From positions 1 through 62,828 of the forward strand of contig CANRLO010000002.1 in assembly GCA_947631495.1 (NCBI GenBank): a DNA stretch of 62,828 bases. The letters are read 5' to 3'. Positions 3,205-40,962 of the stretch are shown here, one piece after another. The DNA is from an uncultured Clostridia bacterium. GTDB lineage: Bacteria > Bacillota > Clostridia > TANB77 > CAG-508. Under the pieces are notes generated by a model. The model saw only the letters and a program-made list of their open reading frames with translations, searched no databases and had not been told where the DNA came from. The first letter of the stretch is position 1; every line of letters begins with the position of its first letter. Both the position numbers and the translations under genes were made by a program.

Positions 3205-4155
3205 ATGATTGCAATTCATCCTATATTAAAATGCTTTCCTCTAAAAGTGGCAAAGAAAATAGAAGATTATTTCCTTTCGGAAAATATCAATTTGAATTTA
3301 CTAGAGGAAATTCGCATTCGTACAAATCGTCCTATTTTACTTAAAGTAGGACAAGAAGAAAGAAAAGTAGAACATGTAATTTCGCAAGAAGAAATTCTAG
3401 AGACTCTGCAACATATTTGCGATAATTCCATATATAGCTATCAAAGCCAAATTTGCAAAGGTTATATCACTATGCAAGGTGGACATCGTGTTGGAATTAC
3501 TGGAAATGCAATAATTAAAGAAGGACAGGTTAGTAATATTAACTATATTTCTAGCCTTAATTTTCGTATTGCAAAACAGGTTCTAGGGGCTAGCAACAAA
3601 ATTTTAAAATATGTTATTAACGAAGAAGAAAATTCAGTTTTTAATACACTTATTGTTTCACCACCAGGAGCAGGAAAGACTACTATTTTAAGAGATTTGA
3701 TTCGTAAATTAAGCAATGGAATTGAACAAATCAATTTTCATGGAATAAATATAGGAGTAATTGACGAAAGAGGAGAAATTGCAGCTATGTATCGTGGCGT
3801 TCCACAAAATGATGTAGGCATTCGAACTGATGTATTAGACAATGTAAGTAAAGAAATAGGAATGAGCATGCTGGTACGTTCTATGGCGCCAAAAGTCATT
3901 GTAGCAGATGAAATAGGAAATCCAGAAGAAATAAAGCCTATCATGTATGCTATTTGTTCAGGAGTTAAAGGAATTTTTACAGCGCACGGAGCTTCTATTG
4001 AAGATATAAAATTAAATCCTACACTAAATGAACTTGCAGAAAATGGTGTATTTGAAAGAATTATTTTTTTAAACGATAAAAAAGAAAAAGGAGAAATTCA
4101 AAAAGTATATTGCTTGAATAAAATAGAAAAGCAATATGTTCTGTATAATAATTAA
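3205..4155 (+). CDS. spoIIIAA: stage III sporulation protein AA (ATPase)
   Basis: Walker A SPPGAGKTT, first gene of a spoIIIA-ordered operon. The ATG at 3205 has better RBS spacing than the track start 3187. Confidence 0.85.
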   Translation: MIAIHPILKCFPLKVAKKIEDYFLSENINLNLLEEIRIRTNRPILLKVGQEERKVEHVISQEEILETLQHICDNSIYSYQSQICKGYITMQGGHRVGITGNAIIKEGQVSNINYISSLNFRIAKQVLGASNKILKYVINEEENSVFNTLIVSPPGAGKTTILRDLIRKLSNGIEQINFHGINIGVIDERGEIAAMYRGVPQNDVGIRTDVLDNVSKEIGMSMLVRSMAPKVIVADEIGNPEEIKPIMYAICSGVKGIFTAHGASIEDIKLNPTLNELAENGVFERIIFLNDKKEKGEIQKVYCLNKIEKQYVLYNN

Positions 4156-9131: not shown

Positions 9132-10271
9132 ATGGTAAAAAAAGTAGCAATACTTGCAAATGGAGGAGACGTATCAGGTTTTAATGCAGTAATTCGTGCA
9201 ATTGTTAAAACAGCAGAAAGTAATGGTGTAGAATGTTATGGCTTTATTGATGGGTATCGTGGGTTATTAAAGAATGATTATATAAAATTAAGCAGTGCAG
9301 ACACAGCATCTGGTATTTTACAAAAAGGTGGTTCAATTATTTCATCTTCAACAAATGCTAACGTATTTCGTTATAAAGTAGTAGATGAAAATGGAAATGT
9401 AACTTACCAAGATTTATCTGAAAAATGTGTACAAAATGTAAAAGAAGATGGATTTGATTGCATCTTTACATTAGGAGGAGATAGTACTCAAAAATCAGCA
9501 AGAGATTTCTCTTTAAGAGGAATTAATGTAATTGGTGTACCAAAAACAATTGATAACGATGTAGCTTGTACAGATATTACTTTTGGTTATAATACAGCAG
9601 TATCTGTTGCAACAGAAGCATTAGACAGACTTCATACAACAGCAGAAACACACAATAGAATTATGGTATTAGAAGTAATGGGAAGAGAAGCAGGATGGAT
9701 TGCATTAGAATCTGCTATTGCAGGTGGAGCAGATGTAGCCTTAATTCCAGAAATTCCATATGATATTAACAAAGCAGCAGAAGCAATAAAGAAAAGACAA
9801 GCTATTGGCAAAAACTTTAGCATTGTTGTTGTATCAGAAGGAGCTTTCCCAAAAGGTGGAGATGTATCAGTTGCTAACCAAAGAGATGGAGGAGAAGGTG
9901 TTATTAACATTCAACTTGGTGGCGCAGGAGAAAAAGTAGCAAAAGAACTAGAAAAATTAACAGGATTAACAGCAAGATGTACAGTTCTTGGCTATATGCA
10001 AAGAGGAGGAACTCCAACTGCATTTGACCGTGTACTTTCTACAAAATATGGTGCAAAAGCAATGGAATTAGCCTTAGAAGGAAAATTCAATGTACTAACA
10101 GTTTTAAAAGATGGAAAATTAGACTATGTTGATTTAGAAGATGTTGTAGGAAATAATAAAGAAATTGGTGCTGTACAAGGTGGTACTGCAGAAAGCAATG
10201 TAAGAATTGTAACTATGGACCATGATTTAGTAAAAACAGCAAGAGATATTGGAATTAACTTAGGAGATTAA
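9132..10271 (+). CDS. pfkA: 6-phosphofructokinase (ATP versus PPi dependence not resolved)
   Basis: VAILANGGDVSGFNAVIR, TLGGDST, PKTIDND and MGREAGWIAL are PFK family motifs. Confidence 0.88.
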   Translation: MVKKVAILANGGDVSGFNAVIRAIVKTAESNGVECYGFIDGYRGLLKNDYIKLSSADTASGILQKGGSIISSSTNANVFRYKVVDENGNVTYQDLSEKCVQNVKEDGFDCIFTLGGDSTQKSARDFSLRGINVIGVPKTIDNDVACTDITFGYNTAVSVATEALDRLHTTAETHNRIMVLEVMGREAGWIALESAIAGGADVALIPEIPYDINKAAEAIKKRQAIGKNFSIVVVSEGAFPKGGDVSVANQRDGGEGVINIQLGGAGEKVAKELEKLTGLTARCTVLGYMQRGGTPTAFDRVLSTKYGAKAMELALEGKFNVLTVLKDGKLDYVDLEDVVGNNKEIGAVQGGTAESNVRIVTMDHDLVKTARDIGINLGD

Positions 10272-10385: not shown

Positions 10386-12095
10386 ATGTTAGATTTTAAA
10401 GAAGAAATAGCACAAGCTTTACAAAAGGCTACAGGCTTAGAAAAAGAAGAATTAAAAAGTTATATTGAAATTCCAAAGGATGCTTCTATGGGAGACTATG
10501 CTTTCCCATGTTTTAAGCTTGCTAAAACATTAAAAAAAGCACCACCTGCAATTGCAGAAGAAATAAAAGGAAAATTACAAGTAAACGAAAGTATCATAAC
10601 TAAAGTAGAAATAGTAGGTGGCTACATAAATTTCTATGCAAATAACAATACTTTTATAAATGAAGTATTAAAAGAATATGATTCAAAAAAAGAACAATAT
10701 GGGAACTCTAATATGGGAGAAGAAAAAAACATTGTAATTGAATATTCTTCTCCAAATATTGCAAAGCCATTTCATATAGGACATTTACGTTCTACAGTTA
10801 TTGGAGGGGCTTTATACAAAATATACAAATTCTTAGGATACAATACCATAGGTATAAACCATTTAGGAGACTATGGTACACAATTTGGAAAGATTATTGA
10901 AGGCTACAAACGTTGGGGAGAAGAATATAAAGTAGAAGAAGAACCAATTGATGAGCTTACAAAAATTTATATAAGAATCAATAAATTGTGCGAAGAAGAT
11001 GAAGAAGTATTAAATCTTTGCCGAAATAACTTTAAAAAGTTAGAAGAAGGCGATGAATATTGCACAAAAATATGGCAAAAATTTAGAGACCTAAGCTTAA
11101 AAGAGTTTAAAAGAATTTATGATATGTTAAATATCAATTTTGACTCTTGGAATGGCGAAGCCTTCTATTTTGACAAAATGGATGAAGTTATAGAAAAATT
11201 ACAGAAAACAGGAAAATTAGTAGAATCAGAAGGTGCAAAAATTATTGATTTAACAGAACAAAATATGGCTCCTTGCATTATAGAAAAATCAAATGGTTCT
11301 ACTACTTATGCAACAAGGGATTTAGCTGCTATTTTATACCGTGCACGTACGTACGATTTTGATAAAGATATTTATGTAGTAGCCTATGAACAAAATTTAC
11401 ATTTTAAACAAGTATTCGAAGTAGCAAAATTATTAGGCTTAGATGAAAAATATGTAAATGGTCTAGAACATGTGCCTTTTGGCATGGTAAGACTAAAAAC
11501 AGGAAAAATGTCAACAAGAGAAGGAACGTTAATAAAGCTAGAAGATTTGCTTAATGAAGCAATTTCAAGAGCACTAAAAGTAGTAGAAGAAAAAAATCCA
11601 GATTTAGAAAATAAAGAAGAAGTAGCAAAAAAAGTAGGACTTGGAGCAGTAATCTTCAATGACTTATCAAATAGCAGAATTAAAGACGAAGTATTTGATT
11701 GGGACACCATGTTAAACTTCCAAGGGGAAACAGGTCCTTATGTGCAATATATTTATGTACGTACCAAAAGCGTACTTGAAAAAGCAGGCTATGTACCAGA
11801 ATATAAAGAAATAAATACAAAAAATTTAGCGGATGAAGCTTCTTGTAATGTAATAAAAACAATTGCAAACTTTGCAGATACATTAAAGCAAGTAGTAGAA
11901 AAAAATGAACCATCAATTCTTGCAAGGTATTTAATTGAACTTAGCCAAAGTTTTAGCAGTTTCTATAATAACAATAAAATTATTGGAGAAGAAAAAGAAG
12001 TACAAGATGCTCGTTTATACTTAACTTATATAGTAGGAAATATTTTAAAAACAGGAGCAAATTTACTAGGAATAGAAATGCCAGATAGAATGTAA
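10386..12095 (+). CDS. argS: arginine--tRNA ligase
   Basis: Class I HIGH motif (PFHIGHLRS), ArgRS N-terminal domain, C-terminus ending ...MPDRM. The leader is only ~115 nt, so there is no room for a T-box. Confidence 0.92.
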   Translation: MLDFKEEIAQALQKATGLEKEELKSYIEIPKDASMGDYAFPCFKLAKTLKKAPPAIAEEIKGKLQVNESIITKVEIVGGYINFYANNNTFINEVLKEYDSKKEQYGNSNMGEEKNIVIEYSSPNIAKPFHIGHLRSTVIGGALYKIYKFLGYNTIGINHLGDYGTQFGKIIEGYKRWGEEYKVEEEPIDELTKIYIRINKLCEEDEEVLNLCRNNFKKLEEGDEYCTKIWQKFRDLSLKEFKRIYDMLNINFDSWNGEAFYFDKMDEVIEKLQKTGKLVESEGAKIIDLTEQNMAPCIIEKSNGSTTYATRDLAAILYRARTYDFDKDIYVVAYEQNLHFKQVFEVAKLLGLDEKYVNGLEHVPFGMVRLKTGKMSTREGTLIKLEDLLNEAISRALKVVEEKNPDLENKEEVAKKVGLGAVIFNDLSNSRIKDEVFDWDTMLNFQGETGPYVQYIYVRTKSVLEKAGYVPEYKEINTKNLADEASCNVIKTIANFADTLKQVVEKNEPSILARYLIELSQSFSSFYNNNKIIGEEKEVQDARLYLTYIVGNILKTGANLLGIEMPDRM

Positions 12096-16981: not shown

Positions 16982-17010
16982 TTGACATTATATAGAAAAA
17001 ATTATATAAT
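16982..17010 (+). promoter_or_regulatory. consensus sigma-A promoter of polysaccharide locus 1
   Basis: TTGACA (16982-16987), 17 bp, TATAAT (17005-17010), ~25 nt before the GGGGG RBS/ATG at 17035. Confidence 0.6.
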
Positions 17011-32123: not shown

Positions 32124-32147
32124 ATAAAATTAGTTAATGATAAAAAG

Positions 32148-32181
32148 AAACACATATGAAAAAAGCATATGTGTTTTTTTT
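32148..32181 (+). terminator. rho-independent terminator closing locus 1
   Basis: AAACACATATG (32148-32158) pairs with CATATGTGTTT (32166-32176), followed by a T-run; an A-run upstream makes it potentially bidirectional. Confidence 0.85.
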
Positions 32182-32227: not shown

Positions 32228-32253
32228 TTTCGTAAAGTTAATTCCTTTACGAA
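32228..32253. promoter_or_regulatory. left 26-bp inverted repeat; candidate tyrosine-recombinase core site (9-7-9)
   Basis: TTTCGTAAAGTTAATTCCTTTACGAA. Arms TTCGTAAAG / CTTTACGAA around the asymmetric spacer TTAATTC. Exact reverse complement at 33562-33587. Confidence 0.7.
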
Positions 32254-32263
32254 CATCAAAACT

Positions 32264-32292
32264 ATTATAGCTGAAAAGAAAACAAAAAGCAA
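32264..32292 (-). promoter_or_regulatory. outward-facing promoter-like element at the left edge of the invertible segment
   Basis: On the minus strand: TTGCTT (32292-32287), 17 bp, TATAAT (32269-32264). The predicted start is ~10 bp from the left repeat. AT-rich background makes chance hexamers common. Confidence 0.35.
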
Positions 32293-32556
32293 GTTTTTTC
32301 TATAAATTTCGTCAAAAAATAAGTAGAAATATGTTTTCATAATGCAATATATAAAAAAATCAAAATTAGCTATTATAGTATAATTTTGTAAGTATAACCT
32401 TTTAAATAACGAAAGAAAACTAATTTATAAATAAAATTTTTAAACTAAGTTGCCCACAGACAGAGGCAAAATAAGGATAAAAACTAGTTTGAAAGAAATA
32501 ATCTTTCGTTGCTATGTTTGCCTTGTGAGCAAAGCCAGAAAGGGATGTAATTTAAA

Positions 32557-33495
32557 ATGAACATTTTAACACTAAAAGTAAAAAAGAATAAATCAATAAC
32601 ATTAGAAGAAATTATTGATAGTTGGCTACTCTACAAAAGATGTAAACTAAAGGAATCTACTTATTATCGTTACCAGTATATTATAAAAAAATATATATTG
32701 CCTAGCTTAGGAAAGGAAAAAATAGTATACCTACAACATTATGATTTTAATCTTTTTATCGATAAACTGATAGATAGTTTATCACCTAAAACGGCAAAAG
32801 ATATTATCATTGTACTAAAATCAATTCTAAAATATGCAGAAAGAAAATATAATTTTGATTTTAAACTAGATTTAATAACACTACCTAAATATCAACCAGA
32901 AGAAATCCAAATTTTAAGTAAAAAAGAGAAACAACAATTAGAAGAAATGTGTTATAAAAATGCAACATTCCGTAATATTGGCATTCTAATTTGCTTGAAT
33001 ACAGGAATACGCATTGGAGAAATTTGTGCTCTTACATGGAAAAACATTAACTTAGAAAGAGATACCTTAGTTATTAATAAAACAATGCAAAGAATTTATA
33101 AGGATAAAAATAATACAATTATTTTAATAGATACTCCAAAAAGTAAAAAATCGATTCGTGAAATACCAATTTCAAAAAAACTCCATAACCTTTTATTAGA
33201 AATAAAAAATAACAATAAGTTTAATGGAGATGAATTTTTTCTCACAGGGGAAAATAACAAATTTATAGAACCTAGAAATTATCAATATATGTTTAAAAAA
33301 TGCCTGAACGAATGTAATATAAAGGAATATAACTTTCATGCATTAAGACATACATTTGCTACAAACTGTATTGAAATAGGAATGGATGTAAAATCTTTAA
33401 GTGAAATTTTAGGACATGCAAGCGTTGATATTACTTTAAATAAATATGTTCATTCTTCTTTAAAAACGAAAAAAATTTATTTGGAAAAACTATAA
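32557..33495 (+). CDS. tyrosine site-specific recombinase (phage-integrase family)
   Basis: N-terminal SAM-like domain. Catalytic signature RIGEICALTW (R), HALRHTFAT (HxxR), LGHASVDITLNKYVH (H...Y). Confidence 0.88.
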   Translation: MNILTLKVKKNKSITLEEIIDSWLLYKRCKLKESTYYRYQYIIKKYILPSLGKEKIVYLQHYDFNLFIDKLIDSLSPKTAKDIIIVLKSILKYAERKYNFDFKLDLITLPKYQPEEIQILSKKEKQQLEEMCYKNATFRNIGILICLNTGIRIGEICALTWKNINLERDTLVINKTMQRIYKDKNNTIILIDTPKSKKSIREIPISKKLHNLLLEIKNNNKFNGDEFFLTGENNKFIEPRNYQYMFKKCLNECNIKEYNFHALRHTFATNCIEIGMDVKSLSEILGHASVDITLNKYVHSSLKTKKIYLEKL

Positions 33496-33549
33496 AAACT
33501 ATTATGAAGTGAAATACAAATTTTCATTTCATAATAGTTTTTTCTTTTT
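33496..33549 (+). terminator. strong rho-independent terminator after the recombinase gene, still inside the invertible segment
   Basis: AAACTATTATGAA (33496-33508) pairs with TTCATAATAGTTT (33528-33540), plus an inner TGAAA/TTTCA pairing, then TTTCTTTTT. Confidence 0.85.
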
Positions 33550-33561
33550 GCCTAAAAGTAT

Positions 33562-33587
33562 TTCGTAAAGGAATTAACTTTACGAAA
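33562..33587. promoter_or_regulatory. right 26-bp inverted repeat; candidate recombinase core site in opposite orientation
   Basis: TTCGTAAAGGAATTAACTTTACGAAA; the spacer GAATTAA is the reverse complement of the left spacer. Confidence 0.7.
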
Positions 33588-33616: not shown

Positions 33617-34873
33617 ATGCAGTCAAAAAGCGGGTTTTATACTACAACTTACAAAATACGACTTTATACAAATCATTTAAATTACATCAAAAATACTGAA
33701 GTAATTTATAACGAAACAATTCTAAAGTACTACAACTTATTATTTGACAATTTAGAATTTTTAAACCTATCAAATCAAAATTGTTTGAGAGAGTTAGAAA
33801 AATTAACAATCAAAAGTAAAACAGGAGAAAAGCCAAAAGATTATATAGAACAAGATATTCCTATGTACTTAAGGAGAGCAGCTATCAATCAAGCAATCGG
33901 ATATGTTAGAAGTTATCAAACTGCACTTAATAATAAAATGTCAAGTAATAATCTAGAAAATACAGAATTGCTTAGGAATTCATTAAATGAAAAACAAAAA
34001 ACAAAGATAACGATTAATAAAGCAACAGCATTTCATTCTTCAATTATGCTCTACAAAGGAATGTATAAAGACTTATATGAAGATAGAATCACAATAAAAC
34101 TTTTTGATGGCGAAAGTTGGAGATGGTTTCCAACCAAAATAAAAGGTAGAAAAATTAATGAAAATGCAGAGATTCTATCACCAAGTATTGTTGTAAAAAA
34201 AGACCTTGTTATGCTTCATCTTCCAGTAAAAGAAGAAATAGAAGATGTAACACCAATAAAAGAAAGGATGCAACAAGAACATATTCAAGTATGTGGCATT
34301 TCGTTTTCAAACACAGATAGTTTTGCTATATGTGTGGTACTTGATGAAAGCAAAAACATAATAAAAGCAAAATTTATTAAAGGTGGAAACGAATATAGAA
34401 ATGCAACACACACCATATTAGCAAAAATTAAAAAACATAAACAAAATGGACAAAAATTTTCACAAAGAGACCATAAACATTATTGGGAAAAATTAAACAA
34501 CATAAGTGATTATTATGCTCACAAAGTAAGTAAAGAAATTATTAATTTTTGTATTGAAAACAATGCTCCAATTATTGCTATAGCAGACATGGAAGAAGAT
34601 GTAAGTAAGCATTTTGGCAAGAAAGTAGGAAAGTATAGTCCAATTTATCTAAGAAAAAGGATTATTTCCTATTTACAATATAAGGCATTCAAACAAGGAA
34701 TTCTCATTACAAAAGTAAGAAGAAACTATACTGCAAGCAAGTGCTATATATGTAGGACAAATATCAAAAGGAACGGAAGCAAATACAATTGTGAGAATGG
34801 GCATCAAGGAGATTATTTTTTTAATTCAGCAATGAATATAGCAATCATGTGCTTAAAAAAATTTGGCAAATAA
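33617..34873 (+). CDS. TnpB-like (IS605 OrfB family) protein, RuvC catalytic positions apparently substituted
   Basis: YKIRLYTN N-terminal motif, zinc ribbon CYICRT...CENGH, NSAMNIA tail. GISFS replaces GIDLG, IIAIADM replaces hhhhEDL, DYFFNSAM replaces D.NAA. No adjacent tnpA. Confidence 0.7.
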   Translation: MQSKSGFYTTTYKIRLYTNHLNYIKNTEVIYNETILKYYNLLFDNLEFLNLSNQNCLRELEKLTIKSKTGEKPKDYIEQDIPMYLRRAAINQAIGYVRSYQTALNNKMSSNNLENTELLRNSLNEKQKTKITINKATAFHSSIMLYKGMYKDLYEDRITIKLFDGESWRWFPTKIKGRKINENAEILSPSIVVKKDLVMLHLPVKEEIEDVTPIKERMQQEHIQVCGISFSNTDSFAICVVLDESKNIIKAKFIKGGNEYRNATHTILAKIKKHKQNGQKFSQRDHKHYWEKLNNISDYYAHKVSKEIINFCIENNAPIIAIADMEEDVSKHFGKKVGKYSPIYLRKRIISYLQYKAFKQGILITKVRRNYTASKCYICRTNIKRNGSKYNCENGHQGDYFFNSAMNIAIMCLKKFGK

Positions 34874-34903
34874 TTTCAAAATAAATTTAAAACTAAAAAT
34901 TAA

Positions 34904-34972
34904 ATTTGAATAGAATTCAAATCCTAAGAAGAAACACTTAGGTATGCAATAAAACTATATGCTTTATTGCAT
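34904..34972 (+). ncRNA. three consecutive stem-loops 3' of the tnpB-like gene; candidate guide-RNA (omega-RNA-like) scaffold end
   Basis: ATTTGAAT/ATTCAAAT (34904-34922), CCTAAG/CTTAGG (34923-34942), ATGCAATAAA/TTTATTGCAT (34944-34972). Confidence 0.3.
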
Positions 34973-35079
34973 GTGTTGAATATCGCAATTTTACATAGTC
35001 AAAGTGTAAATAAAGAACGGAGTAATCCAACAATATTCAGAGATGCCAAATTGAATCATTTCAAAAAGAGGGGACAAAC

Positions 35080-40301: not shown

Positions 40302-40962
40302 GTTGTGTGAAAAAAATAGATGACATAACGACTATGATTTTAATAAAAAAGAAGAAAAAATATAGAAAAATGTATTAAATTATAAATAAGAAAATGTGAG
40401 TAAAATTAAGAAAAGCATGATATAAAAAGAAGTGTAATAAGTCTGTACGGAATGACGATAGAATTAGAAATTTATAAAAAATACCAAATAAAGAGAAAAA
40501 GCATGAGCCAAAGAACTATGAACAAATGATAAGAGTGAAAAAGAGTATAAGTAAATGTAAAGAATATGAGCTTTGTAAAAAAAAATTACAGAAATAGATG
40601 AGTATATTTTTTATTAAAATTAGAAAGTTTAGAAATAAATATTTTGAAAATAGTAAGCATTTTTAACAATATCAATGCCAACATAAAATATAAAAATACC
40701 ACTTTTCAAAAATATTAATAATGATGATAAGCTTCAATATGTGTTTATTCTTATAGATTTGTGTGACATAAAAGCTCAAAGATAAAAAGACTGAGGTTTA
40801 TTCAACCAATAAATAATTAAAAGAAAAAAATGAAAAATCTAAAGAAAAAACATATTTATTTTAAAAATATAAGTCAAATATAGATAATTAAATTTAGTTG
40901 TTGATAACTTTATTATAAATAACGGTATAATATTTCAGATAAAAAAGGAGAATAAAGAAATT

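Follow-up and report, generated by a model that had tools for sequence, protein, structure and literature searches.

What does a gene for a TnpB-like protein do between an invertible DNA switch and a capsule locus, where no transposase gene lies beside it? We addressed this question in the window, by which we mean the whole analysed stretch of 62,828 nucleotides (nt) from an uncultured Clostridia bacterium (contig CANRLO010000002.1; G+C content 26%). We found a conserved order of four elements: an invertible promoter segment (inverton), a TnpB-family protein that has lost the catalytic residues of its RuvC nuclease, a structured RNA, and an operon for a surface structure. It is highly probable that, behind its phase switch, the window encodes a nuclease-dead TnpB together with a partner RNA. 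Nuclease-dead TnpB relatives known as TldRs repress transcription under RNA guidance, and an alternative surface antigen is encoded alongside them (PMC10705468, PMC13622181). By analogy with them, our preferred reading is a domesticated TldR-type RNA-guided trans-regulator that is co-expressed with the switched operon, and we give it a probability of roughly 0.5.

The TnpB-like protein and its partner RNA

33617–34873, plus strand: nuclease-dead TnpB-family (TldR-like) gene of 418 amino acids (aa); S229, A323 and F401 replace the aspartate-glutamate-aspartate (D-E-D) triad of RuvC, and C376, C379, C392 and H396 are kept
34916–35050, plus strand: conserved structured RNA (omega-RNA-derived scaffold), defined by alignment, RNAalifold, a covariance model, nhmmer and a covariation test
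35051–35079, plus strand: variable sequence 3' of the scaffold, at the guide position (UUGAAUCAUUUCAAAAAGAG...), which also carries the ribosome-binding site (RBS) of the next gene

The 418-aa protein matched the Pfam family Cas12f1-like_TNB above its curated cutoff (E 1.5e-8), and its matches to OrfB_IS605 and to the NCBIfam model guided_TnpB fell under theirs. The nearest solved sequences are AsCas12f and related Cas12f and TnpB proteins. An AlphaFold model built from a 69-sequence alignment reached a predicted local distance difference test score (pLDDT) of 90.2 and a predicted template-modelling score (pTM) of 0.81. The best full-length Foldseek matches to this model in the PDB were ternary complexes of Cas12f and TnpB (8dzj, E 1.9e-15, TM score 0.62), and the top matches comprised AsCas12f, CnCas12f, OsCas12f, ISFba1 TnpB and ISDra2 TnpB. 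The dCas12f structures 9n9m and 9n9c were also among the fold matches. Taken together, the Pfam, AlphaFold and structural matches identify a protein of the TnpB/Cas12f fold with WED, REC, RuvC and zinc-ribbon parts. All 69 family sequences aligned keep the zinc ribbon residues (C376-x2-C379...C392-x3-H396) unchanged, and a REC-helix motif (P-x-Y-[FL]-R-R-A-A-I) is common to this family and its nuclease-active relatives.

In a joint alignment with relatives that retain D-E-D, the catalytic columns of the window protein are occupied by S229 (in GISFS), A323 (IAIADM) and F401 (DYFFN). A profile alignment to AsCas12f places the catalytic E324 and D401 of that protein on A323 and F401. The three columns are variable and non-acidic in all aligned family members; distant full-length relatives, 20–25% identical, keep (V/I)DL(G/N), (V/I)FE(N/H)L and (N/H)AD(L/F)NA.

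An earlier note on this DNA, made from the sequence alone, had described a 418-aa TnpB-like open reading frame (ORF) with a CxxC...CxxxH zinc ribbon and had judged by eye that all three RuvC positions were replaced. The ORF call, the Pfam match and the fold bear out the first point, and the four zinc-ribbon residues are family-invariant. The by-eye call was correct according to the alignments to AsCas12f and to the D-E-D relatives: these alignments put no acidic residue in the columns of S229, A323 and F401.

Behind the gene lies an element of ~135 nt that is common to ten close loci, with four helices and compensatory changes in 18 of 35 predicted pairs. In the window these helices are P1 (34923–34942), P2 (34946–34970), a long-range helix of 34976–34983 with 35033–35040, and an inner hairpin (34989–35011). 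When the alignment was extended to 28 sequences, 90.4% of cells were paired, compared with 65% in shuffles, and 32/35 pairs had double (compensatory) changes; slid controls gave 37–50%. We detected the element with a covariance model, built only from AT-rich Clostridial sequences, and an nhmmer profile. It adjoins at least 68 of 80 family genes on the same strand: 65 copies are just downstream of the gene, and three (loci L009–L011; L numbers denote related loci) are just upstream, between the switch and the TnpB-like gene. The Blautia group has a diverged version. No Rfam family was found for the RNA, either at the gathering threshold or at E up to 10.

A weak covariance-model match was located directly 3' of the stop codon of an active tnpB (protein P0279 of locus L094; E 0.004, 20.8 bits, filters off, ~15 kb searched). 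This match shares the P1 motif and GUGCUACGAG with the scaffolds of Eubacterium callanderi. The RNA of the family is most simply read as an omega-RNA-derived scaffold. The stem-loops noticed earlier behind the stop codon are thus real (34900–34972), and two of them are P1 and P2 of a larger conserved RNA. The suggestion of an omega-RNA-like partner also held, as the RNA is conserved, covaries, and resembles the RNA behind an active tnpB. A second weak RNA match in L009 (7551–7666) was dismissed because it overlies an ORF start.

We also observed a weak promoter-like match (TTAAAA-18-TAGAAT, 9/12) at 34887–34916, which ends exactly at the start of the RNA scaffold. The RNA might be transcribed separately from it, although the frequency of such matches in this AT-rich region does not reach that expected by chance.

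The invertible switch and the surface-structure operons

32143–32181, no strand assigned: bidirectional intrinsic terminator-like hairpin found by a terminator scan; it closes polysaccharide locus 1
32228–32253, no strand assigned: left recombination site (IRL), a perfect 26-nt inverted repeat with 33562–33587
32264–32292, minus strand: outward promoter inside the inverton (TTGCTT-17-TATAAT), reading leftwards through IRL and away from the TnpB-like gene
32557–33495, plus strand: tyrosine recombinase (invertase) inside the invertible segment (Pfam Phage_integrase 6e-29, Phage_int_SAM_3)
33495–33541, plus strand: strong terminator hairpin after the recombinase gene, a 20-pair stem followed by a T-run
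33562–33587, no strand assigned: right recombination site (IRR), a perfect 26-nt repeat 30 nt upstream of the TnpB-like start codon
35080–35718, plus strand: initiating sugar transferase, the first biosynthetic gene of polysaccharide locus 2 (Pfam Bac_transf 2e-65), co-oriented with the module

Each recombination site consists of 9-bp palindromic arms, TTCGTAAAG/CTTTACGAA, flanking an asymmetric 7-nt core. The window has no such sites besides IRL and IRR, and 0.01 would be expected by chance. Since the outward promoter points away from the TnpB-like gene and no promoter lies ahead of that gene, the window represents the OFF orientation, in which neither the module nor locus 2 is expected to be expressed. 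The terminator behind the recombinase gene is predicted to block read-through into the TnpB-like gene in this state, and the hairpin at 32143–32181 would also halt leftward transcription from the switch promoter.

Both orientations occur among relatives. The promoter keeps its position and points away from the gene in L001, L004, L005 and L007, but it reads into the gene in L008 and L009, which have a reversed recombinase. The segment with the window's IRL and promoter lies reversed directly upstream of the gene in L002 (L002:63–166, 88% identity), whose protein is 86% identical. Judged from this sequence, L002 is the ON state of the window's own switch. Segment interiors are inverted between relatives and their flanks are colinear: L007 and L008 are 81% identical as the reverse complement and 57% directly, and L020 and L024 are 96% and 52% identical, respectively.

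This coupling extends through the family. An exact inverted repeat of at least 14 nt lies just upstream of 44/66 family genes, compared with 4/224 random anchors in the same loci, and its right arm is 13–49 nt from the start codon in 30 of the 44 repeat-bearing loci. Recombinase homologues are found inside inverted repeats in 20 related loci (13 forward, 7 reversed), and many other family loci have short invertible promoters of 130–460 bp. The invertible switch proposed earlier is therefore supported by the perfect 26-nt repeats, the recombinase and the two orientations across relatives. We rejected the idea that the recombinase and the tnpB-like gene form a transposon, because nothing but the recombinase segment lies between the repeats, and it is this segment that is inverted between genomes with its flanks colinear.

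Two observations concern the switches themselves. The recombination sites are hairpins with T-rich flanks and may double as terminators. In E. callanderi, the invertons of ~335 bp (L038, L040, L062 and L076, ~9595–9990) each contain two pairs of direct repeats, TGGTCA-N5-6-TGGTCA, which could bind a conventional regulator.

The polysaccharide loci on either side of the module each begin with a Bac_transf gene, and Pfam confirms the two capsule loci that had been proposed to surround it. Locus 2 continues with glycosyltransferases, an epimerase, a flippase and ugd. Family-wide, the first downstream ORF encodes Bac_transf in 20/74 cases and an epimerase or Polysacc_synt_2 protein in ~15; others encode a glycosyltransferase or UDP-glucose dehydrogenase, and in most loci this ORF is a polysaccharide-biosynthesis gene. 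In Frisingicoccus (L031) and in L056 the TnpB-like gene is the last cistron behind large adhesin genes with MucBP, Listeria-Bacteroides-repeat and DUF11 domains. The RNA and a terminator follow the gene there, and a Hin-like serine invertase and a ~70-bp inverton are nearby. Searches of the 78 related loci and the window found no homologues of flagellin, CsrA or FliW; no search was aimed at opp genes. Judged from these gene contents, the common theme of the family loci is phase-variable surface structures.

Further features of these operons were recorded. In L031:2388–11350 and L056:3800–11400, two adhesin modules are in tandem with the Hin-like invertase between them and an FctA pilin gene nearby; the ~70-bp inverton corresponds to L031:6928–7043. 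The Blautia loci L019, L021, L027 and L017 have a poly-G tract (9, 9, 6 and 4 G) ~30 nt after the scaffold. It sits before the first polysaccharide gene, inside a possible mini-ORF, and could add a layer of slipped-strand phase variation. In the window, a gene-less and very AT-rich gap of 660 nt (40302–40962) precedes the second UDP-glucose dehydrogenase gene of locus 2 (40963), and locus 2 may therefore be two transcription units.

Proposed mechanism, guide position and alternative roles

How could such a module act? In the proposed mechanism, the dead TnpB would bind the structured RNA encoded immediately behind its gene, protein and RNA together forming the leading part of the locus-2 polysaccharide operon. 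Both would be transcribed only after a flip of the inverton (32228–33587), which lets the outward promoter drive transcription across the right repeat and into the gene. In the ON state, the ribonucleoprotein would use the variable RNA tail and a short target-adjacent motif (TAM) to bind a matching DNA site, blocking transcription without cutting. The capsule switch would thereby be coupled to repression of some competing gene set. We infer DNA binding, guide, TAM, repression and target identity only by homology with TldRs.

The earlier note had proposed a co-switched RNA-guided regulator acting like fljA and had suggested the promoter of locus 1 (16982–17010) as a first place to look for its target. 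The first part stands as a reasonable model, since the coupling to an invertible switch and a capsule operon is conserved in the family. The second found no support: the best match to the guide position at that promoter is a 9-mer, which is at chance level, and we consider it to have a low probability of being the specific target. The site itself is a near-consensus TTGACA-17-TATAAT promoter without an inverton and thus seems to be constitutive. In that case an ON switch would mean transcription of both loci, barring a repressor of locus 1. As a tentative generalisation, somewhat less probable than the RNA-guided role itself, each inverton-controlled surface operon of gut Clostridia might bring a dead-TnpB/guide-RNA pair that, with the operon ON, silences competing surface loci or freezes other switches.

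The sequence behind the scaffold behaves in part like a guide. The scaffold ends with GAAGUUAUAAAA in most loci and with CAGAGAUGCCAAA in the window, and unrelated sequence follows. Between paralogues within a genome, similarity ends at the scaffold 3' end or within ~15 nt of it, and exactly there in L031 and L056. This divergence point would be the expected behaviour of a scaffold/guide junction.

Several results weigh against an RNA-guided role in trans. The sequence at 35051–35079 has no match of at least 12 nt elsewhere in the 62.8-kb window; exact window matches of at least 11 nt to the post-scaffold sequence are limited to a single 11-mer within locus 2. Searches of the 2.2 kb ahead of every family gene, a region that includes inverton and recombinase, gave no convincing enrichment of matches over cross-locus controls. 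Promoter regions of sister family loci in the same genomes, searched with anchored 16-mers and mismatches allowed, stayed at control level except at paralogous self positions. A metagenome scan with one Blautia-type guide (L079), self loci excluded, returned 12 matches on unrelated environmental contigs, without extension. In addition, the junction carries indels between close relatives (the window and L001 differ by 5 nt, L020 and L024 by 1 nt), and the guide-position sequence of the window overlaps the RBS of the next gene. In compact loci an RBS (L009–L011) or a terminator stem (L031) begins ~3–10 nt past the scaffold, which leaves little room for a dedicated guide. The guide of an oppF-associated TldR can be as short as 9 nt (PMC13622181), and guides of about that length would escape sequence detection, making targets hard to find.

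Two other candidate matches were set aside. In L041b (Bariatricus massiliensis), the first 14 post-scaffold nt match inside a gene of the neighbouring module (L041:2650–2663), which is suggestive but not significant given multiple testing. Guide-like sequence to the left of IRL in the window and L001 amounted to only 7–10 nt with indels and was rejected.

We also noted a GC-rich hairpin, AGGGAACGnnGCCCTCAnCGTTCC, in E. callanderi, which is found both inside the longer gene and ~22 nt after the RNA scaffold (L038:11584–11612, L040:10932–10960; L040 ~11705, L038:10796). Possible readings are a marker of a guide's 3' end and a small repeat element.

Because of the junction indels, the RBS overlap and the compact loci, a role in cis and control of the switch stay live alternatives to the RNA-guided regulator. 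According to the first, the dead TnpB would attach to the scaffold in the mRNA of its own operon, or to the DNA encoding that scaffold, and would have no programmable target in trans. It is the better surviving of the two, although we regard it as unlikely; the same holds for its possible modes of action, in which the protein would tune the following genes by RBS occlusion, by protection of the mRNA 3' end or as a local roadblock. In every case the RNA has the orientation of the operon and is transcribed with it, either as part of the leader or at the end of the operon, and this favours a cis role, as do the doubling of the post-scaffold sequence as RBS or terminator in compact loci, the junction indels between orthologues and the lack of a detectable trans target in the searches made. 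However, the protein keeps the full WED-REC-RuvC-TNB architecture with high model confidence and has its REC-helix motif in common with nuclease-active relatives. The sharp divergence of paralogues at the scaffold end is guide-like, and in the cited papers on TnpB, TldR and dCas12f the functions are DNA-targeting only (PMC10705468, PMC13622181, PMC13472631).

The second alternative is that the ribonucleoprotein controls the switch: bound on or close to either a recombination site or the recombinase gene, it would fix or bias the orientation after the operon has turned ON. The closeness of the right repeat to the start codon in 30 of the 44 repeat-bearing loci is consistent with this, and in L059 (B. 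massiliensis) the first 13 nt after the scaffold (11341–11353) equal the outer arm of the locus's own palindromic recombination site, 200 nt upstream of the gene (9759–9803). The match in L059, though suggestive, does not reach significance once multiple testing is allowed for, and post-scaffold sequences show no general complementarity to the inverton or its flanks. Matches of at least 12 nt occur in 8.6% of own pairs and 2.0% of cross pairs, a difference that is partly due to base composition and to the duplicates L052/L053. Furthermore, the family is also found with short invertons that have no local recombinase and with serine-invertase switches. Control of the switch is thus improbable, and less probable than a role in cis.

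Ancestry, known relatives and meaning

A word-indexed search found 365 homologues, and the best 120 of these 365 are mostly ~400 aa long and 33–84% identical. A scan of one genome per species gave 78 related loci, all in Clostridia. The closest are metagenome-assembled genomes from rabbit gut; other carriers are Blautia, Coprococcus comes, Bariatricus, Frisingicoccus, Eubacterium callanderi/limosum, Anaerotruncus, Acetivibrio and Peptococcaceae. When 1.84 billion representative proteins were searched with the family profile, we obtained 140 clusters (50% identity) at E <= 1e-30, and a single 90%-identity cluster of the family contains 3,289 sequences.

The window has one copy of the TnpB-like gene. 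Paralogues within a genome are 61–90% identical, each at its own surface-structure locus, and dN/dS (the ratio of nonsynonymous to synonymous substitution rates) is 0.09–0.21 in six pairs, indicating purifying selection. No TnpA was found in the window or the 78 related loci (1.38 Mb; tblastn with two approximate TnpA query sequences). The genes that adjoin the TnpB-like gene encode the tyrosine recombinase and Bac_transf, in agreement with the earlier statement that neither TnpA nor a serine recombinase is adjacent.

Where did the gene come from? An outgroup that retains D-E-D has the same Pfam domains (PF27142 'Aq_aa04' and PF07282) and is annotated as IS605 OrfB/TnpB, and one of these relatives, P0279 of L094, is encoded directly after a Y1 TnpA gene. 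These findings indicate that the window protein descends from bona fide IS200/IS605 TnpBs. It is a descendant that has lost the nuclease residues, the transposase partner and the multicopy behaviour. In L094 (2037–3948), the tnpA(Y1)-tnpB IS200/IS605 element is inserted next to a NotI-type restriction-modification system; its resembling RNA is at 3791–3948, with a likely right-end hairpin at ~3991–4010. The transposon ends and TAM of this active relative could not be defined: every copy retrieved represents one and the same insertion, and a hairpin at the left end was not observed.

Could the gene instead be an ordinary or decaying IS200/IS605 tnpB, a solo insertion-sequence remnant that lies beside a capsule locus by chance? 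Its match to the TnpB family and its 3' RNA do look like those of an insertion sequence. This explanation is nevertheless contradicted by the present results and is very improbable: the related loci examined have no TnpA and no near-identical copies, purifying selection is strong, the triad is lost family-wide, and the place between inverton and surface operon is kept across many genera. The earlier view of a nuclease-dead TnpB relative rather than an ordinary IS605 element is sustained by the lost triad, the absence of TnpA from the loci searched and the purifying selection; the many identical copies with TnpA partners that would have spoken for such an element were not seen in these loci. 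Equally improbable is a protein that is still a nuclease through a relocated, non-canonical active site. In its favour, one RuvC residue can occupy an alternative position (Wiegand et al., PMC10705468), D234 is nearly invariant in the family, and D324 and D399 lie near the canonical positions. Against it, none of the three canonical columns is acidic or constant, relatives have K or P in place of D324 and N in place of D399, and the counterparts of D234 in active relatives are loop residues without conservation.

How does the preferred reading, a domesticated RNA-guided regulator, compare with known systems? Published TldR clades are associated with fliC, oppF and csrA, and according to a 2026 preprint it is unclear what most TldR clades do, and more domestications are still to be discovered (PMC13622181). 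The fliC-associated TldRs of Enterobacteriaceae prophages (PMC10705468; PMC13418256) resemble the window protein in their inactivated RuvC, the scaffold RNA just downstream and the co-encoded alternative surface antigen, with which the TldR is expressed. The window protein belongs to a different lineage, with an Aq_aa04-type N-terminal domain and Cas12f proteins as the closest solved structures. It is full length and keeps its zinc ribbon, whereas many TldRs are C-terminally truncated. Its gene is chromosomal in Clostridia, not phage-borne, and is predicted to be expressed from an invertible promoter, and the cargo of the family is capsule and adhesin genes instead of flagellin. The oppF- and csrA-associated TldRs of Firmicutes (PMC13622181) are likewise host-encoded dead TnpBs with a guide RNA; the window family differs from them in its association with invertons and surface polysaccharide or adhesin operons.

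In Bacteroidetes, dead Cas12f with sigma-E carries out RNA-guided transcription activation of susCD-type operons (PMC13472631). There too, a dead miniature protein of the type-V/TnpB fold and its guide RNA have been exapted for transcription control. In contrast, no gene for an extracytoplasmic-function (ECF) sigma factor or helix-turn-helix partner was found among the scanned neighbours of the window family. Active IS200/IS605 TnpBs with omega-RNA (that of L094 and ISDra2 TnpB) have the same fold, the Aq_aa04 N-terminal domain, the TNB zinc ribbon and a resembling RNA after the gene, and the window protein differs from them in lacking D-E-D, an adjacent TnpA and multicopy behaviour.

Conventional protein regulators of fixed specificity are known to set a hierarchy among competing loci or switches: FljA in the hin/fljBA system of Salmonella, UpxZ in the capsule loci of Bacteroides, and regulators of the PapB type. 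The likeness to these would be a functional analogy only, in that the regulator is a co-transcribed passenger of a phase-variable surface operon. They have no homology to the window protein, whose specificity would be programmed by RNA.

Our search of the full-text literature found no description of a dead TnpB tied to invertons, capsule loci or adhesins; members of the family may sit unremarked among the 506 proteins in the list of Wiegand et al. On our best reading, the window family is TldR-like by ancestry and anatomy, and what is new is its lineage, the inverton-driven logic of its expression and its cargo.

The same arrangement across gut Clostridia suggests an undescribed RNA-programmed layer of surface phase variation. 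If this is true, the module would be a guide-RNA equivalent of FljA, UpxZ or PapB, whose specificity could be rewired by a few nt behind the scaffold. An RNA-guided regulator of this kind would explain how Firmicutes coordinate multiple phase-variable surface structures, would join the RNA-guided exaptation of transposon proteins with phase variation, and would offer compact natural parts from gut anaerobes that resemble CRISPR interference (CRISPRi). The clade is large and is present in cultivable gut commensals, including Blautia, Coprococcus comes, Eubacterium callanderi and Anaerotruncus. Since the module is sharply defined as inverton, gene, RNA and operon, the question it raises is directly testable.

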